Shown: positions 2,393-19,808 of the stretch, in pieces
How positions within the stretch are numbered: the first letter of the stretch is position 1
Layout of the letters: every line of letters begins with the position of its first letter
Source of the DNA: an uncultured Planctomycetota bacterium
Lineage (GTDB): Bacteria > Planctomycetota > Planctomycetia > Isosphaerales > Isosphaeraceae
Reading direction: 5' to 3'
Length of the DNA: 64,000 nucleotides
Assembly (NCBI GenBank): GCA_963823665.1
Contig: CAWGMQ010000006.1
Span: 288,001 to 352,000 of the forward strand
Notes under the pieces: generated by a model
Seen by the model: only the letters and a program-made list of their open reading frames with translations
Told to the model about the DNA's origin: nothing
Databases searched by the model: none
Translations under genes and position numbers: made by a program

Positions 2393-2606
2393 CGAGCACC
2401 CGCGCGGTTCGCGGCCGGCCCGGAGATTAGCTCCACGGCTGGTCCGCGGACGCGGGAGCGTGGGGCCCTGGCGCGTGCTCGATTGTGCTCACGCTGCGGG
2501 CCACAACTCTGGTCACAAAAGATTTCGCTCCCTGGTGCTGTTTCGTGATTACACTACGGGATGTCTTGCGCGCTGTGCATGTTCAATCCCCGGGCGGGAC
2601 TCTGAG

Positions 2607-4292
2607 ATGGCCAAAAGAAAACCGAAGGAACCCGAGCCGGGCGATGCGGAGCCGGTTTCGGCGGAAGAGGAGGCGGCTTCGCGCGGCGATCACCCAGACG
2701 AATCCGCGACCAAGCCTGGCGAATCATTCGACGACTCCACCCAGCAAGGCAGGCTGGATAAGAGTGACCCCGGCGAGAAAGGATTCACGCCGGAAGTCCT
2801 CGACAAGACGATCATCGCGATTCCGCTCCTCAAGGACCTCAAGAAAGAAGATGACGAAGCGAAGAAAACCGGTCAAACCGCGGCGACCAAGGCCGCGCTG
2901 CATCCGGTGATCATCGACCTGAATCTCCTGTATCCGGTCAACGGGCGAAAAGGCGCGCGAAAGAGGGTGGAGGAGCTTGTCCCGAAGGCGGTTGCCCTTA
3001 CCGGGGGAGACTCGGACGAGGAGGGCATCAACGTCGATAAGAGCAAGCTCAGCGAGCAATACCTCTTCTGCCGTTTGTCAGGCGCGACCATTCGCAAGCT
3101 GGTGGTCCTCGATAACCCTCCGAAACGCAGCGCCGGCGCGGGTGCGCACGGAAATGCGATCTATCACATCTGGCCGGACTTTCGCATCAAGGGGCTCATC
3201 AACAAATCGATCAGCACGGTGAAGGCAGACGCGGCCCATCGGTCTTTCTCGGCACTGGGCGAGAACATCGTCTGGGCCGTGATTGATTCGGGGATCGACT
3301 CCAAGCACCCCCATTTTGCGAAGCACGGCAATTGCACGTTCGATGAAACGATCGAAGCCATAGACTTCACGACTGTCGGCAAGAAAAAAGGCAATGCATA
3401 TCGCGATGTCTACGGGCACGGAACTCACGTCGCCGGCATCATCGCCGGTTGGAGCGGCGCGTCGGAGCAAGAGCCCATCAAGGTCACGTGCCGGCACCGC
3501 GACGAGCGAGGTGAAGTCGCGAGAGAAAGCCAGACGATCAAGTCTCCCATCTCGGGAATGGCGCCGCACTGCAAACTGCTTTCACTCAAGGTGCTGGACG
3601 ACAAGGGGAACGGTGAGGTCAGCAGTGTGATCGCGGCGCTCGAGCACATTCAGGAGATCAACGGTCACGGCCGGCGCATCCGGGTGCACGGGGTGAATCT
3701 GAGCGTCGGATACGACTTCGAGCCCGAGTGGTTTGCGTGTGGTCAAAGCCCGCTTTGCGTCGAAGTCAACCGGCTGGTCAAGTCGGGCGTTGTTGTGGTG
3801 GCCGCGGCCGGCAATTCGGGATATGGCTCAATCCTGCCGCAATTCCCCGGCCGTGTGAACTCGGCCGGAATCGAGCTGACGATCAACGACCCGGGCAACG
3901 CCGACCTGGCGATCACCGTCGGCTCCACGCACCGCGACATGCCGCACATCTATGGCGTCTCGTATTTCTCGTCGAAAGGGCCGACCGGTGACGGCCGTTA
4001 CAAGCCCGACATCGTTGCGCCCGGCGAGAAGATCATTTCGTGCTGCTCCAAAGACGAGGATTTGGGCGAACACCACAAAGGCGAACACTACAAAGAAGAA
4101 AGCGGCACCAGCATGGCCGCGCCGCACGTCTCGGGCGTGATTGCCGCGTTTCTTTCGATACGCAGCGAATACATCGGCTCGCCGGAGGAGGTGAAGCGGA
4201 TCTTCCTCGCAACGGCCACCGACTTGAATCGCACCCCGTACTATCAGGGGAAAGGATTGGTGGACCTGATGCGGGCTATCCAGTCGGTCTAG
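2607..4292 (+). CDS. S8 (subtilisin-like) serine protease, no signal peptide
   Basis: Catalytic triad motifs AVIDSGID, HGTHVAGII and SGTSMAAPHV; oxyanion motif AAAGNSG. Charged, non-hydrophobic N-terminus starting at ATG 2607. Confidence 0.92.
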   Translation: MAKRKPKEPEPGDAEPVSAEEEAASRGDHPDESATKPGESFDDSTQQGRLDKSDPGEKGFTPEVLDKTIIAIPLLKDLKKEDDEAKKTGQTAATKAALHPVIIDLNLLYPVNGRKGARKRVEELVPKAVALTGGDSDEEGINVDKSKLSEQYLFCRLSGATIRKLVVLDNPPKRSAGAGAHGNAIYHIWPDFRIKGLINKSISTVKADAAHRSFSALGENIVWAVIDSGIDSKHPHFAKHGNCTFDETIEAIDFTTVGKKKGNAYRDVYGHGTHVAGIIAGWSGASEQEPIKVTCRHRDERGEVARESQTIKSPISGMAPHCKLLSLKVLDDKGNGEVSSVIAALEHIQEINGHGRRIRVHGVNLSVGYDFEPEWFACGQSPLCVEVNRLVKSGVVVVAAAGNSGYGSILPQFPGRVNSAGIELTINDPGNADLAITVGSTHRDMPHIYGVSYFSSKGPTGDGRYKPDIVAPGEKIISCCSKDEDLGEHHKGEHYKEESGTSMAAPHVSGVIAAFLSIRSEYIGSPEEVKRIFLATATDLNRTPYYQGKGLVDLMRAIQSV

Positions 4293-4388
4293 CGGCTGGA
4301 TGGTCAGGAGCTTGCGAGCGATCACATATTGCGGCCGGGTGCGGCCCAGGTGATCAAGCCGTTCTTTGATGGACTAAAGGAGATCATC

Positions 4389-5809
4389 ATGCCTGCAGTC
4401 GCGAATTTATCAGGGTTTCCATGTTATGAAGTTCAGTTCAAGAAGGACGGCAGCTTGAACGACGGCGCTGACCTGGACGGGCCTGTCGCGTTTATCAAGA
4501 ACAAAGAAATCACCGATCTATTCGTGATCTCTCACGGGTGGAACAACGATATGAAGGATGCCCGGGCGCTTTACAAGAACTTCTTCGCCGTCCTGCGAAA
4601 GGCTCTCGACGGCGACCAGGCGCCGCTCGAGCGCGGCCGGAAGTTCGGCGTGCTCGCGATACTCTGGCCGTCGAAGCGATTTGCCGAAAAGGCGCTCATC
4701 CCGGGCGGCGCGGCCGCGGCGAGCTCGAAGGCGAGTGCGAAGCTCGTCAAGGAACACATTGATTCACTTAAAGGATTCTTCGACGCGCCCGGGGCCGACC
4801 TTGCCCTCGAGAAGGCGAAGGAGCTGGTGCTCGATCTCGAAGACAGCGCGAGAGCTTGCGCGAATTTGCTCGCCTGATTCGCTCGGCCCTGCCGGCTGCC
4901 GGCGACGATCCGGAAGGAGCCCTGGATCACTTCATCGCGGCGGAGGGTGACTCGCTCATGGTGCGGCTCAAAGAGCCGATCGTGGTGCTTCAGGGGAAGC
5001 AAGCCGGAAAGGGTGGCGCTGCGAATCTTCTGGGGGACGCGGCGTGCGCGGCGGGCAACGCAATCGTCGATGCCGGCAAGGGGATGGCTGCCGCGGCGGG
5101 CCGGCTGCTCAATCTCACCACCTATTATCAGATGAAGGAGCGCGCAGAGATCGTCGGTCGGGGTGGCGTCTACCAGATTCTGCGGAAGATTCGCGACGCC
5201 AAGTTGAAGGTCCGTCTTCATCTTGCCGGGCACAGCTTCGGTGGGCGGCTGGTGACCTCGGCGGCGCTCGGGCCGCCGGGCGGGCCCGCGATCAAGCCGG
5301 AGACGATGATGCTCATGCAGGCTGCGTTTTCCCATAACGGTTTTGCAGCGAAATATGATGGAAAGAACGACGGTTTCTTCCGGCAGGTGGTCGCCGCGAA
5401 GCGAGTGAACGGCCCGATCTTGATCACGCACACCGCGAATGACAAAGCGGTGGGAATCGCGTATGCGCTTGCCTCGCGAATCTCGGGCGTGACGGGCGCG
5501 GCCCTGGGGGATGCGAGCGACATTTACGGCGGCATCGGCCGCAACGGGGCCGTCAAGACGAAGGAAGCAAAGTTCCTCGAGCTCGGCGAGGTCGGCACCG
5601 ATTATGATTTCGCCCCCGGAGTTCTCTATAACCTGCACGCCGACGTCATAGCCGAGCACAGCGACATCTGCAAGGCACCGGTCGTCGCCGCTTTGCTCGC
5701 GGCGGTTGCGAAGAGCGGGCCGCTTGCAAAGAGCGCACCAGCCGCGGCCTCCGCGCCCAAGAAAACAAAACCGCGAGCGACCAAGCGCGCTTCGTCTGCA
5801 ACCCGTTGA
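4389..5809 (+). CDS. Alpha/beta-fold hydrolase (one frameshift near 4860)
   Basis: AAGGAG RBS. ISHGWNND in the first frame; nucleophile elbow GHSFGG, NDKAV and EHSDI in the second frame (ORFs 4329..4877 and 4856..5809 join). Confidence 0.75.
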
Positions 5810-5897
5810 GTCGGTGGTTGCCAGGACTTATGATCAGTGTTTGGTCCGATTCATCGGTGCGCGTGTTCTTCGAAGCCAAAGTTGAGATCGAGTTGCC

Positions 5898-6908
5898 ATG
5901 AAGCATCCGGAGTCGAAATCAGACTACAGGATGGTGCTGGATCCGTTGCTCGAAGGAAAGGTTGTTCCCTTCATCGGGGCGGGCGTCAACCTGTGCGGAA
6001 GGCCGCGCGACCCGGATGACGAGACGAAATTTGTTCCGTGGGAGGGTAAGTATATCCCGAGCGGCTGGGAGCTCACGGAGTACCTGGTCGAAACGTACAA
6101 CTATCCCAGGGACGAGCCACGTGATCTGTTGCGCGTGTCGCAGTACGTGGCTGTCAAGAACGGTACCGGGCCGCTTTATGAAAGGTTGCATGACGTGCTG
6201 GTGAAGGGAGACTTTCCAATCACGGCGGTGCATCAGTTCCTGGCGCGCTTACCTGCCGCGAGTAGTGCGGCGAGAAACAAGAGGCGCGACCCCAAGAAGG
6301 TGTATCCTCTGATCATCACGACCAATTATGACGACGTGATGGAGCGCGCGTTCGACGAGGTGGGCGAGCCTTATGATCTGGTGTTTTACGCGGCGCAAGG
6401 GAACGAGAAGGAGAGGTTCTTGCACCGCGCACCAGGTGAGGAACCTCGTCCGATCCTCATAGCGAACAACTATCAAATCGAAGTCGACGGCCGAGCGTGC
6501 ATTCTGCTGGACCAGCGTCCGGTGATCCTCAAGATCCACGGGGCGGTGGACCGGCGGTCCCCGGACCGGGACAGTTACGTGATCACCGAGGATGACTACA
6601 TCGACTACTTGACGCTGCCCCCTCTGACTACCTTGCTGCCCGTTCCCTTACCCGCGCGGTTGGCTCACTGCCATTTCCTGTTCCTGGGCTACAGCCTGGC
6701 GGACTGGAACATGCGCGCGTTTTTCCGCCGGATCTGGAAAGACGCAAAGCTCAGCTACAGGTCGTGGGCAGTGGAAATCCTCAACCGGAAGATCGATCAG
6801 ATGTTCTGGAGAGAGCGGAACGTGGACGTGATCGTCTCGAGTCTGGAGGATTATTTTGCCGATCTGACGGAGCTTCTCGAGTCCCCTGCGGCGGGTCCAA
6901 CTCCATGA
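5898..6908 (+). CDS. Stand-alone SIR2-like (SIR2_2 type) protein, putative NADase
   Basis: Motifs PFIGAGV, IITTNYDD, ILKIHG and FLFLGYSLADWN. Confidence 0.88.
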   Translation: MKHPESKSDYRMVLDPLLEGKVVPFIGAGVNLCGRPRDPDDETKFVPWEGKYIPSGWELTEYLVETYNYPRDEPRDLLRVSQYVAVKNGTGPLYERLHDVLVKGDFPITAVHQFLARLPAASSAARNKRRDPKKVYPLIITTNYDDVMERAFDEVGEPYDLVFYAAQGNEKERFLHRAPGEEPRPILIANNYQIEVDGRACILLDQRPVILKIHGAVDRRSPDRDSYVITEDDYIDYLTLPPLTTLLPVPLPARLAHCHFLFLGYSLADWNMRAFFRRIWKDAKLSYRSWAVEILNRKIDQMFWRERNVDVIVSSLEDYFADLTELLESPAAGPTP

Positions 6909-9900
6909 CGGACACGGGAAGTGCTGGCACCGTTGAGAGGCCCTTCGTCGGGCTGGCGCCATTCGCCGAGGGTGACGCGCGCTACTTCTTCGGCCGTGAC
7001 ACGGATCGGGCAGTGATCACGTCAAACCTGGTTGCCTCGCGGTTGACTGTACTCTACGGGCCCAGCGGGTGCGGCAAGAGCTCGTTGCTCGACGCGGGTG
7101 TCGTGAACCAGGTCAACAACATGGTCGTGCCGCGGCAGACTGCCGAAATAGGCAAGCCCGAGTTTGTGGTCGTGAGCTTTCACGAGTGGCGCGACCGCCC
7201 GCGGGATGCGCTGCTCGAGCGATTGCGGGCGCGCATCGAAGCCGTGGTGGGTCGAGCCATCGAGCCGCCGGGGCAAGACTTGCTGGCCGATGTTCTCGCT
7301 TCATGGTCGAGTGAGGTCAGCGGGGCGCTTTTGCTCGTGCTGGACCAGTTCGAGGATTACTTTCTTTATCACGGGCGGAAGGTGGTGGAGGGGAAGTTCG
7401 CGCACGAGCTCTCTGGCGCGATCAACCGCAGCGGTCTGCGGGCAAACTTCCTGATTTCGATTCGCGAAGACTCTCTGGCACAGCTCGACGCCTTCCAGGG
7501 GCACGTACAGAATCTGCTATCGAACACCCTTCGCCTCGACCGGCTCGACCAGAAGCGGGGCCGTGAGACGATCGTCGGGCCGATCGAGCGGTACAACGAG
7601 CTGCGCGGGAACGGCGCCCCGAAGATCACGATCGAGCCGGAGCTGGTTAACGCCGTGCTGCACGCGGTGAAGGCGGGGTCGATCAACCTCGATACCACGG
7701 GCCGCGGACGTGTGGACCAGCGTGATGAGTCGGGTGAAGATGCCGGCTCGATCGAGACAGCCTACCTGCAACTCGTCATGAGGCGGCTGTGGGAGGCCGA
7801 GATCGCCGCCGAATCACACGTGCTGCGAATGGCGACGTTCGATGCCTTGGGCCGTGCGCAACGGATCGTCGGAACGCATCTTGATACGGTGATGAAGTCC
7901 TTCGACACCGAGCGGCGCGGCATTGCTGCGGAGCTTTTTCGCTACCTGGTGACGCCGACGGGTACCAAGATCGCGCTCTCCTTGAACGACCTGGCGGGCC
8001 TGACCGGGCTGTCGGGAGAGGCCGTCGCTCCGGTGCTGGAGCAGCTTGGCTCGCCGCGTGTGAGAGTGCTGCGCGAGGTCAAGGGACCGATCGACGATCA
8101 GGCGACGCACCGGCACGAGATCTACCATGATGTCCTGGCGGGTGTGGTCCTCGACTGGAGGCGGAGGTATTCGACCGAGCGGGCCAAAAAAAGAGTGCGC
8201 CGGAACATTCTGCTTGTCAGCTCGGGCGTGCTGGTGGCATTGATCCTGCTCTTCAGCGTCCTCGAGGCAAGATACAAGGAACGAATTGCCGAGGAGAGAG
8301 CGACACTCGACGCGAAGGAGCGGGAGCTGACGGCCGTCGCGAACACGAGAATTGCCAAGGCCGAGTCCGAGGCCGCACAATCGAGCGTGCTCGCGACGGG
8401 TGCCGCGCTCGTCCTCGGTGACGACCCCGATCTGAGTCTGGCGCTGGCGCTGGCCGCAATCGGGTCTCACAGGTCTCCGACTGCGGAACGCGCCTTGCGG
8501 CAGGCGCTGGCAGCGGCTCGCGTGCGCCAGGTCGTGGGCAAGGCCGGCGGAAGCAAGCTGGTGTCGGTCGCGTACAGCCCGGATGGCCGGCAATTCGCCA
8601 CGGCGGGGGAGGATGGCAAGGCCGAGCTCTGGGACACGGCCTCCGGCGCTCCGGTGGGAAGAATCGACAACGTCGCGATCAGAGGCGCGAGCCTCGCAGC
8701 GCTTCAGTTTGTCGGCGAGGGCCAATACTTCGCCACCGTTGACGTCGGCGGGAACGTGGCTGTCTTCGACCTCTCTTCGCCGGGTATGAAGCTCGAAAGA
8801 GTCATCGGGCCTCCGAAGAGCACGAGGATGCTTGCGCTTTCATTCGCCGGCGCCGCAGCCCGAGTTGCCGTAGCGACTGATGACAAGGCCATCCGTTGCT
8901 GGGAACTTCCGTCGGGAAAGCCGCTTGTCGACAAGATTCACCCGAGCGATTCGGTAAAGGCGCTCATGCTCAGTCCGGATGGCGAGAAGCTCGCGATCGG
9001 ACTGGAAGCAGCCGCCGCGAATGGACCTGGGCACCCGGGCGGCGCGCGGGTTGGCACCGGCGACGGCGCTGGCGTGGGCGACTCGCACACGGGCGATCGA
9101 TCGACTGTGCGGATCGTCGAGCTTTCCGATCCCGATGCAGGGGCGAGCCTGAGCGAGACGGCGACAGTCACCGCCCTGGCCTTCGACCCAGACGGCAAGC
9201 GACTCGCGGTGGGCACACGCGTGGAGCAGTCGGGCGTGACGGCCCTCTCCCCCTTGCGGCTCTGGAGTTTGCAGAACAAGGCATGGCGCCACGGAGCGAA
9301 CATCCAGGGCCGGTTTGAACCCGCGGTCGTCGAATTCAACCCAACGGGGACGCTCCTGGCCACCGGCGGCAAGGATGGGTTCGCACAACTTTGGGACGCG
9401 AACCTCGGCTACCCTCGGGGCACGCTGAACTGTCAGTCTCCGATCACGCAGGTGGCATTCAGCCCGGACGGTGAACGAGTTCTCCTCGCGTCCGAGGATT
9501 TGTCGGTACGGATCTGGCCCGTCGGCACGAACGGCTCGCTGCTGGTGCTTCGTGGGCACAGGAACGATGTTCTGGATGCGGTGTTCGCGCCGGACGGTCA
9601 GACGATCGCGACCGCCAGCGCAGACGGAACTGCGCGAATATGGAATGCGTCTGCTGAATCTCCATCAATCGCACTCCCCGCCCCGGCAGCGCCGTGGACT
9701 AACGCCGTCTTCACCCCCGACAGCAAGCGCGTGATCCTGGCGGGAGCCGACAATCAATTGCGGATGGTGGAAACGACCACGGGCCAGGTCGTCGGCGAGC
9801 CGCACCCGCACCCCGCGCCGGTGATCGCCATGGACCTGAGCACAGATGGGTCGAGGCTGGCCACGGCGGGTGGTGACAGGATTGCACGGGTGTGGAATCT

Positions 9901-12865
9901 AGCCGCCTGGCAAACTCCGATCGAGTTTTCCGGGCACACAGCCGCCCTTGCGGCCGTGGCATTTTCCCCGGACGGGCGCCGGCTCGCGACGGCATCGTAT
10001 GATCAGACGGCCCGCGTCTATGACCTCGCGTCGGGCCGAGCGCTTGCGGCGCTCGAGGGTCACTCCGCGGCTGTCACCGGCCTGGCGTTTCGGCACGACA
10101 GCGCGCGGCTCGCGACAACGGGGCTCGACAACACGGTGCGCCTGTGGAACACGGCAACGAATCGGGAGATATGGAATCAAGCGGGCTACACGGCCCACCT
10201 GAGCAGTGAAGTGTTTGGCCCCGACGGCCTCGTGATCACGCCTAACATGGGGATTGGAGCGAGCCGGGAAACGAAGACCGACATGGCTCAAGTGATCGAC
10301 GTGGCTACCGGCAGCACCCGCAGACTTCGGGGCCACGCGGGGACCGTCGCGGCCGCAGCCTTCAGCCCGGATGGCAGGACGGTGGCCAGCTCCGGGTTCG
10401 ACAGGACGGTCCGGTTCTGGGAAGCAGCGAGCGGCCAGCCTGCCGGCCAGCCTCTTTACGGACACACCGCCCGTGTCGGCAACGTTGTCTTCAGCCCCAA
10501 GGGGACGTACCTCGCGTCGGAAGCGTTCGATGCTACAGGGATCATCTGGGATGCCCGGCGCAAAGTCGAGTTGTTTCGTCTTTCCGGTTTGACAAGCGCG
10601 GTTTCGATCCTGGCGTTTGATCCCGACGAGAAGGTTCTCGCAACGGCGGACCGCAAATTCAGCGTGAATCTCTGGGATGTCGCGCAGGGCCAGATCGTGC
10701 GAATGCTGGAAGGCCACACCGGGGCGATCAGTGCGTTCGCCTTCAGCCCCGACGGCCGTTTCGCCGCTACGGCGAGCAACGACGGCACGACCCGAATCTG
10801 GAATGTGAGCACTGGCGGACTGGTTAATTTATTCAAGCTCCAGAATCGAGTAGCTGTTACACCGATCCAGTTCGCCGTCGACGCCAAGGGAGAGCTCATT
10901 TTCACGTATGCTGATGAGGCGGCCCATTTCTGGACAGTGCAGGGCGGCTCGAAGGACCCACGGGTCGTTCCAGTAGGAGCGCATGGTACCGCGCTGGCTT
11001 TCGACAAGGAGGGAAAGAAACTGGCCATCGGTTGCTCGGACGGGTCAGTGCATCTGGCAGATACAACCACTATGGGAATCACTTCTCGACAGCCGAGCTG
11101 GTACATGTCGACTGAGAACCTGCCTGTTTTCAGTCCGGACGCCGGACGGCTCGTCACGGCCGACCTGAACGGCCTGGCACACGTCTGGGACACCAAGACC
11201 GGGTCTGTGATCCACGATTTGCCGCATGAGGGCCAGCGCGTGTTAGCCGCCACGTTCAGTTCCGACGGCCGCCTGCTCGCCACGGCGACGGATCGTGCCG
11301 TCGTGCGGCTCTGGAATACGGCGATGGCGAATGCCCCACTCTTCCGCCATGTCGTCAAATATCCACAGGTGCTCCTCGCCTTCAATCCTGCCGGCACGCT
11401 TCTGGCCACCGGTAGTGGATCGGAAAACACGGTGCTTCTGTTGAACTGCGACAAAGGCGTCGAGGCCGCCAGGCTCACGGCCAGCGGAAGTGGTTTGAGT
11501 AAGATCGTCTTCAGCGCAGACGGTCAACAAATCGCGGCGAGCTGCCGCGACAATGCGACGCACGTATGGGATGCCCAGACTTTCAAGGCCGGGCGGCCGC
11601 TGCTGTGCGATGCGAGCGTCAATCAGCTTTCCTTCAGCCCCGACGGGACCAAGCTGGCGACGGCAGGAGGATTGAAGGCACGCATCTGGGACCTGAAGAC
11701 ACGGACGCCGAGGGATCTGCCTGTCCAGATGCCGGGCGTCGTCCGCTGTTTGAAATTCAGCCCGAGCGGAGAGCAGCTTGCCTCCGCGGGCGACGATCCG
11801 GTGGTCCGGGTCTGGGACGCGCAGACACTCAAGCAAGTCGCCGACCTGCCGGGCCTTCGCTATCCTGTGAATGAAGTTGATTTCAGTCCCGACAGCAAGT
11901 GCGTCGTGGCGGCATCCGGCGATGTTTCGGTTCGGAGCTGGGAAGTCGCGACGGCCAAGCTGGTCGCCGAGATGCGCGTCGGTGCGGCGACTCCGGCCGT
12001 TGCATACACCAAAGATGGGGCATTCATCACGACCGTCGACTACGCGAACGGGGCGAAAGTCTGGGATGCGAAGTCTGGCAAGCTCCTTTCCGCGCTCGGA
12101 AATATCGCCCACTCGCCCGTCAAGAGCCTGGCATTCAATCGTGACGGCAAGTCAATCATCGCCGTTCTGGGCGACGGCACGGCATGGGTCCGGGACGCAG
12201 ATACGTTGCGGTTCAAAGACGTTGTCGGCTCAGCCGAAGCGTTCACCAACGTACTTCAGATCGATCGCGACGGCGCCCGCGTGGTGATTACCCACGGCGA
12301 GGCAGGCTGGAACGATTCCGATCAGAAGCCGTTTGCTCTGATCGTGCATGAGGACAACACGCCCGCCGAGCACGTGCGCGATCGGACCACCTCCGCGGTG
12401 ATCGAAGCAGGGTTCAGCCGCAGCGGCAAGCTCGCGTTCACGCTCAGGCGTGACGGTACAGCGACCGTGTGGGAAACTTCCTCGAGGAAGTCGCTAGTCA
12501 GGACGGGCGATTCGTCGTTTCGGCCGGGCGTGACCGCGTTCCCGGATGTGGACATCAGCCCGAATAACAAGTTCCTGGCGATCACCAGTTTGTCGGGAAA
12601 GATCAGCGTGTGGGATCTCGATTCCGGCAAAATCCTGACCACATATACAGGGCCATCGGCCAACATCCAGTGGATCGGCTTCAGTCCCGACAGCGCAATC
12701 TTGATGGCGCTTTACGACGACGGAATTGGACGTCTTTTTGGCGCCGACATGTTGGGTCCCATCGACGACGTTGCCAGGAAGGCGCAGGCCATCCTTCGCA
12801 AGGTGGGGCGGGAATTGACGGAATCCGAGCTACAGAAGTACCTGAAACAATCTCTGATCGATTGA
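6905..12865 (+). CDS. nSTAND1-type P-loop NTPase - transmembrane helix - WD40 repeat array (NLR-like)
   Basis: ATG overlaps the SIR2 stop (ATGA). PFVGLAPF...FFGR, Walker A LYGPSGCGKSS, Walker B LVLDQFEDYF, YLQLVM, EIYHD. Hydrophobic helix ILLVSSGVLVALILLFSVL at ~8207-8263. More than 20 GH...WD repeats follow. Confidence 0.9.
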   Translation: MTDTGSAGTVERPFVGLAPFAEGDARYFFGRDTDRAVITSNLVASRLTVLYGPSGCGKSSLLDAGVVNQVNNMVVPRQTAEIGKPEFVVVSFHEWRDRPRDALLERLRARIEAVVGRAIEPPGQDLLADVLASWSSEVSGALLLVLDQFEDYFLYHGRKVVEGKFAHELSGAINRSGLRANFLISIREDSLAQLDAFQGHVQNLLSNTLRLDRLDQKRGRETIVGPIERYNELRGNGAPKITIEPELVNAVLHAVKAGSINLDTTGRGRVDQRDESGEDAGSIETAYLQLVMRRLWEAEIAAESHVLRMATFDALGRAQRIVGTHLDTVMKSFDTERRGIAAELFRYLVTPTGTKIALSLNDLAGLTGLSGEAVAPVLEQLGSPRVRVLREVKGPIDDQATHRHEIYHDVLAGVVLDWRRRYSTERAKKRVRRNILLVSSGVLVALILLFSVLEARYKERIAEERATLDAKERELTAVANTRIAKAESEAAQSSVLATGAALVLGDDPDLSLALALAAIGSHRSPTAERALRQALAAARVRQVVGKAGGSKLVSVAYSPDGRQFATAGEDGKAELWDTASGAPVGRIDNVAIRGASLAALQFVGEGQYFATVDVGGNVAVFDLSSPGMKLERVIGPPKSTRMLALSFAGAAARVAVATDDKAIRCWELPSGKPLVDKIHPSDSVKALMLSPDGEKLAIGLEAAAANGPGHPGGARVGTGDGAGVGDSHTGDRSTVRIVELSDPDAGASLSETATVTALAFDPDGKRLAVGTRVEQSGVTALSPLRLWSLQNKAWRHGANIQGRFEPAVVEFNPTGTLLATGGKDGFAQLWDANLGYPRGTLNCQSPITQVAFSPDGERVLLASEDLSVRIWPVGTNGSLLVLRGHRNDVLDAVFAPDGQTIATASADGTARIWNASAESPSIALPAPAAPWTNAVFTPDSKRVILAGADNQLRMVETTTGQVVGEPHPHPAPVIAMDLSTDGSRLATAGGDRIARVWNLAAWQTPIEFSGHTAALAAVAFSPDGRRLATASYDQTARVYDLASGRALAALEGHSAAVTGLAFRHDSARLATTGLDNTVRLWNTATNREIWNQAGYTAHLSSEVFGPDGLVITPNMGIGASRETKTDMAQVIDVATGSTRRLRGHAGTVAAAAFSPDGRTVASSGFDRTVRFWEAASGQPAGQPLYGHTARVGNVVFSPKGTYLASEAFDATGIIWDARRKVELFRLSGLTSAVSILAFDPDEKVLATADRKFSVNLWDVAQGQIVRMLEGHTGAISAFAFSPDGRFAATASNDGTTRIWNVSTGGLVNLFKLQNRVAVTPIQFAVDAKGELIFTYADEAAHFWTVQGGSKDPRVVPVGAHGTALAFDKEGKKLAIGCSDGSVHLADTTTMGITSRQPSWYMSTENLPVFSPDAGRLVTADLNGLAHVWDTKTGSVIHDLPHEGQRVLAATFSSDGRLLATATDRAVVRLWNTAMANAPLFRHVVKYPQVLLAFNPAGTLLATGSGSENTVLLLNCDKGVEAARLTASGSGLSKIVFSADGQQIAASCRDNATHVWDAQTFKAGRPLLCDASVNQLSFSPDGTKLATAGGLKARIWDLKTRTPRDLPVQMPGVVRCLKFSPSGEQLASAGDDPVVRVWDAQTLKQVADLPGLRYPVNEVDFSPDSKCVVAASGDVSVRSWEVATAKLVAEMRVGAATPAVAYTKDGAFITTVDYANGAKVWDAKSGKLLSALGNIAHSPVKSLAFNRDGKSIIAVLGDGTAWVRDADTLRFKDVVGSAEAFTNVLQIDRDGARVVITHGEAGWNDSDQKPFALIVHEDNTPAEHVRDRTTSAVIEAGFSRSGKLAFTLRRDGTATVWETSSRKSLVRTGDSSFRPGVTAFPDVDISPNNKFLAITSLSGKISVWDLDSGKILTTYTGPSANIQWIGFSPDSAILMALYDDGIGRLFGADMLGPIDDVARKAQAILRKVGRELTESELQKYLKQSLID

Positions 12866-14293: not shown

Positions 14294-15782
14294 TCAGATC
14301 AACTGGCGGATGGGCTCGGCGCCTTCCACGCCGACGAGCTTCTGATGCAAGCCGGCGTAAAAATAGTTGAGTCCGTTGGGGTCGAGGCCGAGCTGGTGCA
14401 GGATCGTGGCATGGAGGTTCTTGACGTGGAATCGATCCTCGACGGCCGCGCTGCCGAGCTCGTCCGTTTTGCCCACGCTGGTTCCACCCTTGATGCCGCC
14501 GCCGGCCATCCACATGGTGAAGCCGAAGGAGTTGTGGTCTCTCCCGGTGCCCTGGGCGAACTCGGCGGTGGGCTGGCGGCCGAACTCGCCGCCCCAGACG
14601 ATGAGGGTTTGATCGAGGAGGCCGCGCCGCTTGAGGTCTTTGATCAGGCCCGCGATCGGTTGATCGGTGTTGCCGGCGTGAAAATTGTGGTTGGCCATCA
14701 GATCGGCGTGGGCATCCCAGTTGTCGTCGTTATGGGCGCCGCCGGAGTAGATCTGGACGAAGCGGACGCCGCGCTCGACCAGCCGCCGGGCGATCAGGCA
14801 CTTGCGGCCGAAGTCGGCCGTACGAGGCTGGTCGATGCCGTAGAGCTCTCGAGTCTCGGCCGATTCCTGGCCCAGGTCGACGGCTTCGGGCGCGGACCGC
14901 TGCATGCGAAAGGCCAGCTCGTAGCTGGCGATTCTTGCGGCGAGCTCCGAGTTGTCGGCGCGAGGCGAAGTGGGCGTCGTTTTTCTCTCGAAGGCGATCG
15001 AGCAGGAGTCTCCGCGTGGCGCGGTCTGCGCCCGGTGGCGAGGCCAGGTCATGGATCGGCACCGAATCGGCGCGCAGGACGGTTGCCTGGAACGCCGCGG
15101 GCATGTAGCCGCTTGACCAGTTCTTGGCCCCGCTGATCGGCCCCCCCTTGCGGTCGAGCATGACGACGAAACCGGGCAGGTTCTCGTTTTCGCTGCCGAG
15201 TCCGTAGGTGACCCACGAGCCCAGACAGGGGTGGCCTGAAAGCAGGCGCCCGGAATTCATCATGAGCATGGCCGACCCATGGATCGGTGATTCAGCATAC
15301 ATCGAATGGATGAAGGCGATGTCGTCGACGCAAGTCGCCAGGTGGGGGAAGAGCGTGGAGACTGGCTTGCCGCACTGCCCAAACTGCTGGAAGCTCCACT
15401 TGGGGCCGACGATTCGCCCCTGATTTTTCTTGCCGCCGCGGCCGAAGGTCTTGACCGCGATCGTCTTGCCGTCCAGAGGGTAAAGGTCGGGCTTAAAGTC
15501 GAAGGTATCGACGTGGCTCGGACCGCCGTACATGAACAGGAAGATGACGCTCTTCGCCTTTGCCCGAAGCGGCGGGACCCTGGGAGCGAGCGGATTGACG
15601 AAGGGCGTGACGCCGTCGGCCGCGACGGCCTGACGTGCGAGGAAGCCGTCGGACTGCATGAGCCCTGCAAGCGCCGCCGACCCGAAGCCGCCGCCGATCT
15701 GCCAGAGGAATTCGCGGCGGGTGCGGCCACAGAACGAGCCGGGTGGCGGACGGTCCGGACGGAACAGAGAACGTTCATCCAT
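14294..15782 (-). CDS. DUF1501 planctomycete protein (frameshift near 14960)
   Basis: TRREFL Tat motif, AKSVIFLFMYGGPSHVDTFD, GSWVTYGLG. Second frame: SYELAFRMQ, ARRLVERGVRFVQ, GGEFGRQP, GRDHN. Confidence 0.88.
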
Positions 15783-16026
15783 GGTGGATCGTCTCGCGGC
15801 GAATGGGGTTCATGCAGGCGAACTCGGAGGAAACGGAAGGCGGGGGCAAGCTGTTCGCGACCGGGCGCGATCCTTGACATTCACAGTATGCGGAAATGTG
15901 CGAGGTGACGCAATGGAGCGCGGCCCGCGGGCGACGCTGGGCTCTCGACGTATGCACGCGTGGTGTTGTCGGTTACGATGTTATTGAACGTTTCCGCGCA
16001 CGCTTTTTTCAGGTAAATTCAGCGAC

Positions 16027-16652
16027 ATGGCGTCGGCATCCAGCAATCACACGATTCAAATTCAAGGCTGGCTCGACAGGCTGCGCGACGGGGACGAAGC
16101 CGCCCGCGAAAAGCTGCTGCAATTCTCCTGCGAACGGCTCAGGCGATTGACTCGCAAGATGCTGCGCAGGTTCGAGCGGGTGCACCGCTGGGAGCAAACC
16201 GACGACGTGCTTCAAAGTGCGATGCTCCGATTGCATCGAACGCTTCAGGACGTGCGGCCGGATTCGCCGGCCGATTTTTACCGGCTCGCCGCGCTGAACA
16301 TTCGCCGCGAGCTGCTTGATCTGGCCAAGCATTACTTCGGCCCGTGCGGGCTGGGAGCCAGGCACGCGAGTGTGGAGGGCACGGCTGACTCGCTCGGCGG
16401 GCGCAGGAGCAGCGGGCGGCTGCGCCAGACGATGCTCCCGACCAGCTTGCGCGATGGACCGAGTTCCACGAAAAGATCGCGAGCTTGCCCGCGGACGTGC
16501 GAGATCTGTTCGATCTATTGTGGTATCAGGAGCTCCGGCAGGCCGAAGTCGCGGAGATTTTGGGCGTATCGGAGCGCACCATCAAGAGGCGCTGGGCGGC
16601 GGCTCGGCTCCAGTTGCACGAGCTCTTAGGCGGCGAATTGCCTGAAAGTTGA
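16027..16652 (+). CDS. ECF sigma factor (frameshift near 16400-16440)
   Basis: WLDRLRDGDEAAREKLL...RWEQTDDVLQ. In another frame: RWTEFHEKIASLP...QAEVAEILGVSERTIKRRWAAARLQL, stop at 16652. Confidence 0.8.
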
Positions 16653-16660
16653 TTCTGCCC

Positions 16661-19600
16661 ATGACGTCGTTAAAAAGCCTTGCCGACCTGCTTGTCGAGT
16701 GGGAAGAGCAGACGGAGGCCGGCAAGACGGTGGCACTCGAAGAGCTTTGCCGCAATGCTCCCGAGCTGCTGGATGTGCTGCGCGGAATGATCGATAAGCT
16801 CCGCGCGGTGAACTCGGCCATGGCGACCCAGAGGCTCGAGCGGAGCGAGGGGAACATCGAGTTCCGTACGGTCGCGCCGGCCGAAGCGATGACGGGCACG
16901 GTCTTGCCTTCCGTTCCGGGCTACGCGATCCAGCGCGAGCTGGGCCGCGGCGGGATGGGGGTTGTTTACCTGGCGCGCCAGGAGGGGCTCGAGCGTCTGG
17001 TGGCGATCAAGATGCTACCCCAGGGGGCAGAAGCCGAGCGCACGATGCAGCGGTTTCAAACCGAGGCGGAGGTCATCGCGCGGTTGCAACATCCCAATCT
17101 CATTCAGATCTATGAAGTCGGGACGGTCGAAGGCAGGCCGTTTTTCTCGATGGAATATGTGCCGGACGGCACGCTGGAGGAGCAGCTTCGGCGTCAACCG
17201 CTGGCACCGCGTGAAGCGGCGCGGCTCATCCAGATCCTGGCGACCGCCATGCACGAGGCCCATCGCTGCGGCGTCGTGCACCGCGATCTGAAACCGGGGA
17301 ATATTCTGCTGAGACGAGAGGGCGATGGAACGGAAGATACGACGCTCGAGAGCGGCGTGTGGCTCGCCACGGCGGCCGAGGCTCCGGGGTCGTTCTGTCC
17401 CAAGATCACGGATTTCGGGTTGGCAAAGCGGCTGGGCGAGGCCGAAGGGCTGACGCTCACGCACAGCGTTCTGGGCACACCGTGCTACATGGCGCCCGAG
17501 CAGGCGCGGGGCGACTCGAAGAATGTAGCAGGGACCACCGACATCTACTCGCTGGGCGCGATCCTTTACGAGCTGCTCACCGGCCGCCCTCCGTTCAAGG
17601 CAGCAACCGTGTGGCTCACGCTGCAGCTTGTCAGCAGCGCCGAGCCCACGCCGCCGCGCTCGCTCCAGCCGAGTGTGCCCGGCGATCTCGAGGTCATCTG
17701 CCTGAAGTGTCTGGAAAAGAGCCCGGCGAAGCGTTATCCCCGGGTCATCGATCTGGCCCATGATCTGCGGCGCTTCCTCGAGGGGGAGCCTATCCTGGCG
17801 CGACCAACGCCGTTGCTGGAGCGCGGAGTCAAGTGGGCGCGACGGCGGCCGGGCCCGGCGGCTGCGATTGCCGTCGGCGTGTTCGCACTGGCGGCGCTGC
17901 TTTGCGGGGATCGCGTATCACAATGTGAAACTACAGAGCGCGCTTCGGGCCGAGCAGGCCAGCGCCACGGAGAGCCGCCGGAGGCTCGTGCGTCTGGAAG
18001 TGGCGCAGGGAAACCATGCTCTCGATCGCGGTGACAGCACACTCGCGATGCTCTGGTTTGCCGATGCCTTGCGTCTGGATGATCCCGCCCATACCCGGGC
18101 TCATCGCCTCCGGCTGGGAATGGCTGCTGCTCTTGCTCCGCCGTTGCGGCAGATCTGGTTTCATGGCGACGCGGTGCGGCAGGCCAGCTTCGATTCAGGC
18201 GGCGCGCGGGCTTTCACATTCAGCGAGGACGGGACGGTCAGGATCTGGGATGTGGAAACCGGAGCGGCGATCGGCAAGCCGCTCGTCCATCCAGCTCCGG
18301 TAGTCGACGGAGCACCCGGCGCCTCGGGGCTGGTCGTGACGGCTTGCACGGACGGATCCGGTCGAGTATGGGACACGGGCCGAGGAGAAGTCAGCGCCTA
18401 TCTCGGGCACCAGGGCCCGCTCACGACCGCGCGGTTTGACCGGGCTGGCCGAAAGATCGTGACGGCATCGCGCGACGGGACGGCCAAGCTGTGGACGGCC
18501 GATGGCAAGCTGATCGCGATCTTGAAGCATAGCGGTCCGGTGAACGATGCCGCGTTTTCTGCGGGCGGGCAGCTCGTCGTCACGGCGGCCGAGGACCGCA
18601 CGGCACGGGTCTGGGAGACCGAACATGGCGCGCCGGTGACTCCCCCCCTGCTCCATGACAGTCGAGTTGTCCAGGCGGCGCTATCGCCAGACGGGACGCT
18701 CGTCGCGACGGCCAGTGACGACGTGGTGGCGCGGATCTGGCAAGTCAGCAACACGCCGGCTGCCCCCAAGATTCTCAAACATGCGCTTCCGGTAACATGC
18801 GTATTGTTCAGCGGCGACGGCGGACGGCTCGCCACCGGCAGCCACGACGCCACCGCACGGATCTGGGACCCGCGTGATGGCAAACCGGTGGGCTCGCCGC
18901 TACGGCACGAGAGCGGTGTGCTAGGGGTTGCCTTCCATCCCGACGGCAACCGCGTTGCCACGTGCAGCGACGACAACACCGCGCGGCTGTGGGACGTGGC
19001 AACCGGCGAGCCCTTGACCGCACAGCTCAAGCACGGCGGAAATGTGCAGTGTGTCGCGATTGACCCGCGGGGGCGCTTCATCTTGACCGGCAGCATCGAC
19101 GGAACCGCGCGGCTCTGGGACATCTTGCCGGCGCGCGACAAACCGTCGGTCGAGAGGGAACCGGCGTCAAAGGTGGTGCCGCGGGAAGAGACCAAGGTTT
19201 GGTGGAGCGCTGACCGCAAGTATTATGCGACACCCGAAGGCAGTCACTCGGCGCGAATTCACGACGCGGGCGGTAAGCCGGTCGGGCCGGAGCTGCGTCA
19301 TGGCAGCCTGGTCAGCTTTGCGGCGTTCAGCCCGGATGGAGCGCGCCTGGTCACAACCAGCGAGGACTGCACGGCGCGGTTCTGGGATGCGGCGACGGGA
19401 GACCTGCTCGCACCGCCGTTGCGGCACCTGGGAAGCGTGCGCTGCGCCGCGTTCAGTCCCGACAGCCGCTCGTATGTGATGACCGCGAGTACGGACGGCA
19501 CAGCACGGATCTGGGATGTTGCGACGGGGGAGCCCGTGAGCCCGGCGCTGCGATTTTCGGGTGCACCGGTGAGTGTGGCGTTTCCTTCTGCAGAACGGGT

Positions 19601-19808
19601 TCAGGTGAGGACCGTTCAAGGGAGCGAGACCTCGACCTGGACGTGGCCGCTCGTGAGCACTCGTTTGGCCGCCGGAGTGTTGCTTTCGGAAGCGGAGGTT
19701 CTTTCGAATTGTCGCATCGATGCGGACCGCGGTCTGACGCCGCTCGATATTCGCACGTTGCGGGAGGCGTGGGTTGAAGGTGGGCGAGTGCGAGCGGGCG
19801 GTAAGTAG
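16661..19808 (+). CDS. Hanks-type Ser/Thr kinase - TM - WD40 repeats (frameshift near 17903)
   Basis: LGRGGMGVVY, VAIKM, HRDLKPGN, DFG, GTPCYMAPE. Hydrophobic segment after WARRRP. WD40 repeats in ORF 17760..19808. Confidence 0.85.

Follow-up and report, generated by a model that had tools for sequence, protein, structure and literature searches.

The window, by which we mean the whole stretch of 64,000 nucleotides that was analysed, belongs to a 16.5-Mb assembly of 12 contigs (G000), and a check of its ORFs found four co-oriented genes between positions 2607 and 12865 in the order S8 protease, alpha/beta-hydrolase, SIR2 protein, and nSTAND1-WD40 protein (Table 1). The gaps are 96 bp between the S8 and hydrolase genes and 88 bp between the hydrolase and SIR2 genes, and the SIR2 and nSTAND1 genes are translationally coupled via an ATGA overlap; the orientation and spacing reported in a first-pass annotation of this DNA were reproduced. 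The catalytic motifs that it had described as apparently intact were also found (D227/H271/S502 in the S8 protease, GHSFG in the hydrolase, N143/H214 in the SIR2 protein, and Walker A K58 and Walker B D147 in the NTPase), and the first 45 residues of the S8 and SIR2 proteins are, as claimed, unlike signal peptides when judged by hydropathy only. The surroundings are housekeeping-like genes with the exception of a ParD antitoxin/ParE toxin pair identified with Pfam at positions 2-723 of the minus strand, 1.9 kb upstream of the cassette. Promoter and terminator scans gave results at chance level (3 versus 2.2 and 9 versus 8.4, respectively). The combination had not been recognised as a named system, and no PADLOC or NCBIfam profile named one for the window genes; in these searches the S8 protein matched the 'subtilase' model and, weakly, IetS, while the SIR2 protein weakly matched ThsA.

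Table 1. Features of the cassette (window coordinates) and layout of the joined loci found elsewhere
Feature or locus	Position or gene order	Strand or orientation	Remarks
S8 subtilisin-like protease	2607..4292	+	561 aa; PF00082
Alpha/beta-hydrolase, DUF900-like family	4389..5809	+	~473 aa when intact; here split into 4389-4877 and 4856-5809
Stand-alone SIR2_2 sirtuin-fold protein	5898..6908	+	336 aa; PF13289
nSTAND1 NTPase + WD40	6905..12865	+	1986 aa; PF20703, PF00400
Predicted single transmembrane helix of the nSTAND1 protein, residues 435-453	8207..8263	+	hydropathy only
S8 + hydrolase segment missing at the syntenic locus of G001 (L032)	2428..5791		blastn, DNA alignments
G502 (L138)	SIR2-SIR2-STAND-S8-hydrolase	co-oriented	inter-module gap ~600 bp
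G1058 (L164)	S8-hydrolase-SIR2-STAND, window order	co-oriented	gap within 70-130 bp
G1158 (L165)	SIR2-STAND-S8-hydrolase	co-oriented	gap within 70-130 bp
G1031 (L163)	STAND-WD40 then S8-hydrolase, contig cut	co-oriented	gap within 70-130 bp
L051, 5425-19935	S8-hydrolase-SIR2-STAND between tnsA and glmS	co-oriented	gap within 70-130 bp

The SIR2 protein and its nSTAND1-WD40 partner

The SIR2 protein matches PF13289 (E 3e-23) and carries the motifs GAG, TTNYD (with N143), KIHG (with H214), and FLGY. A TTNYD-type motif was present in 116 of 120 homologues and KxHG in 119 of 120, and both N143 and H214 are kept in all 70 aligned members of the subfamily to which the window protein belongs. When its profile was compared with solved proteins, the best sequence relatives were ThsA, DSR2, and KomC (E 2e-17 to 2e-14). 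At least 5,531 relatives were found. Catalytically degenerate SIR2 copies also adjoin nSTAND1 genes, as in L138, where the second SIR2 copy has neither the Asn nor the His, and in L015, again for the second copy.

The downstream gene encodes an nSTAND1 NTPase (PF20703, E 1e-40, 141 bits versus a cut-off of 27.1) spanning residues 13-433, and its homologues retain Walker A in 118 of 120 sequences and a DQFE Walker B in 96 of 120. The NTPase begins at residue 13, and no effector is fused to it; an N-terminal extension of more than 60 residues occurs in a single homologue of 120, where it is an insertion inside the NTPase. After the NTPase come a predicted transmembrane helix and a helical linker, and then WD40 repeats that extend over ~1400 residues. 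The hydrophobic helix, absent from the first-pass annotation, has a mean Kyte-Doolittle value of 2.85 over 19 residues (best elsewhere 1.17 in the WD40 region and 1.34 in the NTPase), is preceded by the basic run RAKKRVRR, and has a counterpart with a hydropathy of at least 1.8 in the post-NTPase segment of 115 of 120 homologues. The transmembrane call is based on hydropathy alone, and the helix is placed differently in two linked STAND proteins (L051 and L138). On the basis of this predicted helix, the WD40 propellers likely face outside the cytoplasm.

The SIR2 gene adjoins an nSTAND1 gene in 29 of 30 loci, which were drawn from three sets (9 of 10, 12 of 12, and 8 of 8). In the first set, of 10 genome loci, nSTAND1 lies immediately downstream of SIR2 in nine, and the remaining locus is cut by a contig end; none of the 10 has an S8 or hydrolase gene in its flanks, with at least 6.5 kb available upstream in eight. 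The 12 of 12 set was chosen from the stronger SIR2 matches among 121 genomes of the family, 17 of which matched. Co-folding of SIR2 residues 1-330 with NTPase residues 8-425 gave a score of 0.73 (0.72-0.74 across runs) in comparison to 0.00 for the best of three controls, with 100% of contacts shared among runs and a partner pLDDT of at least 83; the score mark is reached by 116 of 157 solved pairs and 2 of 215 mismatched pairs, counts that are roughly applicable with these alignments. The predicted interface includes STAND residues N41, A44, N207, and L209 (at least 90% conserved) and the invariant SIR2 residue N190, the predicted docking surface on SIR2 being formed by residues 190-205 and 244-257. 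In this model, the SIR2 protein is predicted to dock on the N-terminal lobe of the NTPase, although resemblance to SIR2-STAND proteins of solved structure, Avs5 among them, may contribute to the score. The proposal of the first-pass annotation that a trans-encoded SIR2 protein is partnered with the STAND protein is supported by gene adjacency and, at the level of a predicted complex, by the co-fold.

Related arrangements occur elsewhere in the same genome. Contig C3 holds tandem SIR2 genes, the second degenerate, together with a STAND-WD40 gene (L015, 9666-17072), and contig C10 holds a SIR2 gene with an nSTAND1-SIR2 fusion (L013, 10300-13657). On contig C71 of G1593 (L195, 2287-5738), a SIR2 gene is found with an nSTAND1-like gene whose product, as read by eye, has a hydrophobic helix and a non-WD40 C-terminus, which suggests that the outward sensor of the SIR2-STAND pair may be swappable.

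The hydrolase is split in the assembly

The hydrolase gene starts with an ATG at 4389 and has a GGAG ribosome-binding site. It had been listed as one gene but is not a single ORF in this assembly: it reads as two pieces of 162 and 317 residues in different frames, with the break near 4850-4877. The span measures 1421 nt, one base below what 473 residues and a stop codon would need. The relative P0243 is intact at this length and shows 93% identity to the first piece and 89% to the second. Because relatives that are ~90% identical are intact, and because further genes of the window assembly and of its relatives are likewise split, the break is probably an assembly indel, as judged from these comparisons; the gene may instead be a true pseudogene. 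One public soil run contained 0.20 of the sequence words, with positions 4850-4880 left uncovered by the exact pieces compared, and no RNA run was listed as containing them. A DUF1501-like gene, and a presumed kinase-WD40 gene next to one of ECF sigma-like type, also appear to be split between frames elsewhere in the window (14294-19808), which fits frequent indels in the assembly.

Alignment of the family identified the conserved motifs HGWNN and GHSFG, an Asp, and a His. The family resembles DUF900-bearing clusters, with DUF900 present in 19% of the members of the first match. An intact homologue from L051 was modelled with a pLDDT of 80.8 and adopts an alpha/beta-hydrolase fold (best Z 13.3). 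The top VIA-align rows for this model were tied and none names a substrate, and Foldseek returned no match at E 0.001 or better. Low-confidence loops at residues 107-115 and 208-236 surround a helical insert, and these Gly/Ala-rich flanking loops are predicted by the model to be disordered. At least 1,559 relatives were found. Their distribution is patchy, with matches at E 1e-30 in 3 of 401 Planctomycetota, 5 of 351 Acidobacteriota, and 4 of 351 Chloroflexota genomes. Viral contigs yielded no homologue, and none of the PADLOC models matched the intact hydrolase.

The S8 protease is paired with the hydrolase

The S8 protein matches PF00082 (E 3e-47) and the PADLOC 'subtilase' model PDLC03014 (E 1.5e-50), and its catalytic triad is invariant in all 11 aligned sequences. 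Its N-terminus is of low complexity, residues ~65-200 appear to form a conserved prodomain-like region, its C-terminal residues are LMRAIQSV, and no recognisable sensor domain was found. Pairing was tallied for 80 of the 112 metagenome loci found, and in 68 of the 69 with room upstream, that is, the informative ones, the S8 gene adjoins the hydrolase gene (50 clusters at 90% identity). The same pair is present on Burkholderia, Rhodococcus, Rhizobium, and Sinorhizobium plasmids (five of the seven plasmid matches examined, of 25). The remaining two, from Nostoc and Planktothrix, have no S8 gene and adjoin C25 protease and CHAT-nSTAND1(-WD40) genes; these hydrolase homologues show 27-29% identity, and the Nostoc protein reached 99.9% in hhalign. 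A further homologue in Planctomycetota adjoins a trypsin gene. The first-pass annotation had raised the possibility of a protease-activated hydrolase. By analogy, this is probably correct, given the near-constant S8 neighbour and the C25, CHAT, or trypsin proteases beside distant homologues, and the S8 protease likely cuts and activates the hydrolase.

The S8 clade also has other partners. For 20 S8 homologues taken from two other orders, the gene that follows encodes an MBL protein in 17 cases, the hydrolase in one, and a metallophosphoesterase-like protein in one (its motif being read by eye); the remaining S8 homologue is fused to another hydrolase. The MBL partner of this clade matches the PADLOC LmuA and Avs1a models. 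Most stand-alone S8-hydrolase and S8-MBL loci sit among housekeeping-like genes.

Several additional loci were noted. Of 186 genomes sampled from a single order of Acidobacteriota, 16 have S8-MBL pairs (L169-L184 and L186), mostly with housekeeping neighbours and no visible sensor. In the window genome itself, contig C5 carries an S8 gene followed by an MBL hydrolase gene that is LmuA/Avs1a-like in PADLOC (L016, 8284-11307), and on contig C11 a different hydrolase is apparently fused to a frameshifted S8 protein and converges on a kinase-like WD40 gene (L017, 11688-14095). A close S8 homologue (61%) in G1593 is followed by the metallophosphoesterase-like gene, with two upstream genes that have no Pfam family (L167, 2-4975); for lack of the hydrolase downstream, this locus was not counted as an S8-hydrolase pair. 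Other SIR2-type genes directly flank the S8-hydrolase pair in L104 (3-1199), L113 (11657-13600), L065 (6481-7608), and L120 (5550-7805), one of them with TPR repeats, and TIR genes directly flank it in L053, L093, L096, and L159.

Repeated joining of two separable modules

Each module mostly occurs alone. In G001, a genome of the same genus, the flanks are syntenic with the window but the S8-hydrolase segment is missing, so that a TIM-barrel gene is directly followed by SIR2, and no hydrolase was found anywhere in this genome (84% complete). Conversely, G539 (98% complete) has the S8 and hydrolase genes with no match to SIR2 or nSTAND1, and four Acidobacteriota genomes of unstated completeness with the S8-hydrolase pair have no SIR2 match. 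Linkage to SIR2-STAND was seen in none of the 20 S8 loci of the two other orders and none of the five plasmid loci; it occurred in 1 of 50 metagenome clusters, and a hand count of those flanked by at least 2 kb on either side gave 1 of 19.

Among S8-hydrolase loci from whole genomes, 5 of 13 are directly joined to nSTAND1-WD40 (the window, G502, G1058, G1158, and G1031; 4 of 12 without the window), two of the eight unlinked loci being cut on one side. Outside the window, all four genes are joined in four genomes or contigs, and a fifth locus is truncated by a contig end (Table 1). These loci span Planctomycetota, Chloroflexota, and a Tn7-like element, show both module orders, and include two SIR2 subfamilies with 30-40% identity to the window SIR2. 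The position of the L051 set is consistent with the four genes being cargo of a Tn7-like element, as judged from its flanking genes. The window and L163-L165 are flanked by metabolic-type genes. G1031, G1058, and G1158 are of one order and hence not fully independent, although their gene orders differ.

Six genomes have both the S8-hydrolase pair and the SIR2 family, and the two are adjacent in four, including the window genome; of the other two, G289 carries them on separate contigs, and the second has an S8 gene adjoining nSTAND1-WD40 where the contig ends. The linked SIR2 gene is the sole SIR2 match in G1058 and G1158. On contig C2 of G033 (L129, 115-13722), a SIR2-SIR2-nSTAND1-WD40 set converges on MBL and S8 genes, with a TIR-kinase gene on the far side. 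In two records, a near-identical hydrolase and a SIR2 homologue are each found on contigs of 702,760 bp and 130,014 bp; the equal sizes suggest a shared contig and do not imply adjacency. G1081 was left out (2.5-kb contig), and G1254, which is marked as unpublished, entered only some search tallies and is not the sole basis of any statement. The linked S8 proteins do not form one clade, with at least five changes on a quick tree and 19 of 500 shuffles as low; this test used seven linked rows, including the unreliable L129, many 'unlinked' rows were short contigs, and the long-branched L017, L129, and L161 are unreliably placed. Linked and unlinked S8 proteins have no distinguishing domain.

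An obligate four-gene system was rejected, as the modules mostly occur alone, with G001 having no S8-hydrolase pair and G539 neither SIR2 nor nSTAND1. Two unrelated pairs that never co-occur as four, a possibility that the first-pass annotation had kept in view, were likewise rejected by the four other joined sets. Its proposal of a multi-effector system stands in part: a conflict or defence-type reading is supported, but a single fixed set of four genes is not.

Discussion

The results suggest that the four-gene locus may be a facultative two-pronged immune operon. The interpretation that we prefer, with modest confidence, is that two separately conserved pairs have been joined into a layered cell-death or defence operon with parallel, co-expressed killing routes. 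In one arm, the predicted membrane-spanning nSTAND1-WD40 sensor would bind and switch on a SIR2 enzyme of the NAD-cleaving type; by reference to Avs5, ThsA, and DSR2, a cell-surface ligand may cause ATP-dependent oligomerisation, clustering of SIR2, and depletion of NAD+. In the other arm, by reference to Evans et al., the S8 protease could cut in the disordered loops of the hydrolase and thereby free a toxic lipase- or esterase-like enzyme. The two arms would be able to work separately, and their repeated joining most likely reflects an advantage of expressing or transferring two independent killing routes together, and not strict mutual need. A bolder extension, which we regard as distinctly unlikely, is that a bacterial transmembrane NLR-like receptor detects a threat outside the cytoplasm with its WD40 propellers and sets off two killers encoded apart from it, a SIR2 NADase docked directly on it and a subtilisin acting on hydrolase zymogens of a new family. 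This would be an inflammasome-like branched arrangement, put together independently several times from free modules.

The arms might instead form one cascade, in which the S8 protease is triggered directly by the activated nSTAND1-WD40 protein or by a result of SIR2 activity such as low NAD+ or ADP-ribose, so that a single sensor would set off NAD+ depletion and the hydrolase alike. The S8 protease would then take, in trans, the place of the CHAT domain that cyanobacterial loci have fused to nSTAND1. The CHAT-nSTAND1(-WD40) and C25 neighbours of the Nostoc and Planktothrix plasmid homologues point in this direction, as do the adjacency in four of six genomes with both modules (and the S8 gene next to nSTAND1-WD40 at a contig end in a fifth), the linked SIR2 being the only one in G1058 and G1158, and the S8-MBL pair converging on SIR2-SIR2-STAND in G033. 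Against a direct trigger stand the S8-hydrolase pairs of G539 and the four Acidobacteriota genomes that have no SIR2 match, the rarity of linkage (a single case among the 19 metagenome clusters with good flanks and none among the five plasmid loci), and the want of any domain that distinguishes linked from unlinked S8 proteins, and we consider the cascade possible but unlikely.

The joining could also be neutral, with mobile cassettes sharing integration sites in defence islands or landing beside any NAD-acting gene. The patchy occurrence of the hydrolase across phyla, the Tn7-like setting of L051, and the other SIR2 and TIR genes flanking the pair in L065, L104, L113, L120, L053, L093, L096, and L159 would all fit such clustering, which appears very improbable given that the five other linked loci are all co-oriented, four with operon-sized gaps, that the neighbours of L163-L165 and of the window are metabolic-type genes and not island cargo, and that chance adjacency is ~1 in 1000 per genome, a rough estimate from 1-3 such SIR2 loci per 5-16 Mb genome in which kin are not independent. 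A role outside immunity seems quite improbable as well. It would make the membrane STAND protein an envelope or cell-contact receptor with SIR2 as an adaptor or deacylase, and the S8-hydrolase pair a stress-regulated system for lipid or ester processing. The retention of N143 and H214 in 70 of 70 sequences and the anti-phage NADases as best structural relatives argue against this role, together with the LmuA- and Avs1a-matching MBL partner of the same S8 clade, the patchy distribution, and the swapped partners; the degenerate SIR2 copies beside nSTAND1 (L138 and L015), the frequent housekeeping neighbours of S8-effector pairs, and the hydrolase family that has neither a viral-contig homologue nor, when intact, a PADLOC match are the features that speak for it.

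In the layered operon that we prefer, the SIR2 and hydrolase counts given above mark two large module families. The STAND protein would be a receptor whose sensing probably takes place outside the cytoplasm and which enlists an NADase-type SIR2 in trans through a predicted conserved interface, and the subtilisin-hydrolase pair would bring a new hydrolase family and a new protease class into the range of protease-gated effectors. The repeated joining in differing gene orders and in different phyla points to modular immune operons being assembled, and the joined loci indicate a possible signal source for the sensor-less protease. The features that are new here are the NTPase with no fused effector, the predicted transmembrane helix, the predicted docking of SIR2, and the distant hydrolase homologues beside CHAT-nSTAND1-WD40 genes.

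Comparison with known systems

In the literature searched, mostly outside subscription papers, no account was found of the SIR2-nSTAND1-WD40 pair, of the S8-hydrolase pair, or of the two combined, and the papers found contained no phage-defence data for either pair. Among nSTAND1 systems, the accessible parts of two reports (PMC8195603, PMC10907252) describe counter-invader systems with repeat sensors, some with trans effectors, in large-genome or multicellular bacteria. According to these parts, such systems use fused effectors or EAD adaptors, whereas the window has a bare nSTAND1-TM-WD40 protein, a SIR2 protein predicted to dock on it, and an S8-hydrolase pair. Thoeris ThsA, together with DSR2 and KomC, provides the best solved relatives of the window SIR2, which keeps their catalytic motifs; however, ThsA is a SIR2-SLOG protein encoded with a TIR gene, while the 336-residue window protein has no SLOG or sensor domain and no TIR match was found among the four genes with Pfam or PADLOC. 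IetAS (an AAA-ATPase with an S8 protease) resembles the cassette in placing an S8 protease in a defence setting, with weak profile matches, but the window S8 scores 29.6 bits against NF042956 (cut-off 900), has 561 residues versus ~750 for IetS, and gave no IetA match in PADLOC.

The protease-hydrolase arm is best compared with the systems of Evans et al. (bioRxiv 10.1101/2025.11.14.688446). The accessible parts of that preprint show double cleavage of a caspase-paired hydrolase, pairing of MBL clade 3 with S8 proteases, and protease partners fused to WD40 or STAND sensors; an alpha/beta-hydrolase beside a protease and a caspase-hydrolase pairing also appear in the accessible parts of Kaur et al. 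2020 (PMC7159879). The window S8 clade likewise pairs with MBL hydrolases, and genes of the window hydrolase family are constantly beside a protease gene. The partner swapping of both families fits the way in which Evans et al. link proteases to effectors, as far as those parts describe it. The hydrolases themselves differ. The caspase-activated LcHydrolase has 296 residues in those parts, in contrast to ~445 in the window family, which has the HGWNN...GHSFG signature and a sensor-less S8 subtilase as its partner in place of a caspase-like protease, caspase-clan partners being found only for distant homologues. The two share the alpha/beta-hydrolase fold type, but comparison of the window hydrolase with an LcHydrolase-like proxy (the N-terminal domain of L185, similar by eye) gave an hhalign probability of 0.3%, and the families appear to be different; as the window hydrolase is not detectably related to this proxy, the analogy of protease activation rests on gene context. 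The accessions of four hydrolase homologues were not found in two supplementary files of the preprint, in which no hydrolase family table was seen.

The SIR2-STAND arm most resembles Avs5 (AVAST type 5; a further record is PMC12931631), in which a STAND NTPase that bears its sensor at the C-terminus controls a SIR2 domain of the NADase type. According to the accessible part of one report (PMC11897194), defence by EfAvs5 requires the active-site Asn of SIR2 as well as the residues of both Walker motifs; the corresponding N143, K58, and D147, as well as H214, are present and conserved in the window proteins. No Avs model in PADLOC or NCBIfam matched the SIR2 or nSTAND1 protein. Avs5 fuses SIR2 to the N-terminus of the STAND protein, whereas the window SIR2 is a separate ORF; the window locus also differs in its nSTAND1-type NTPase, in a WD40 sensor behind a predicted transmembrane helix, and in the added protease-hydrolase pair. 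By analogy, we conclude that the locus would work like a split Avs5 combined with a zymogen pair of the Evans type, while not being a member of Avs5, Thoeris, or IetAS.
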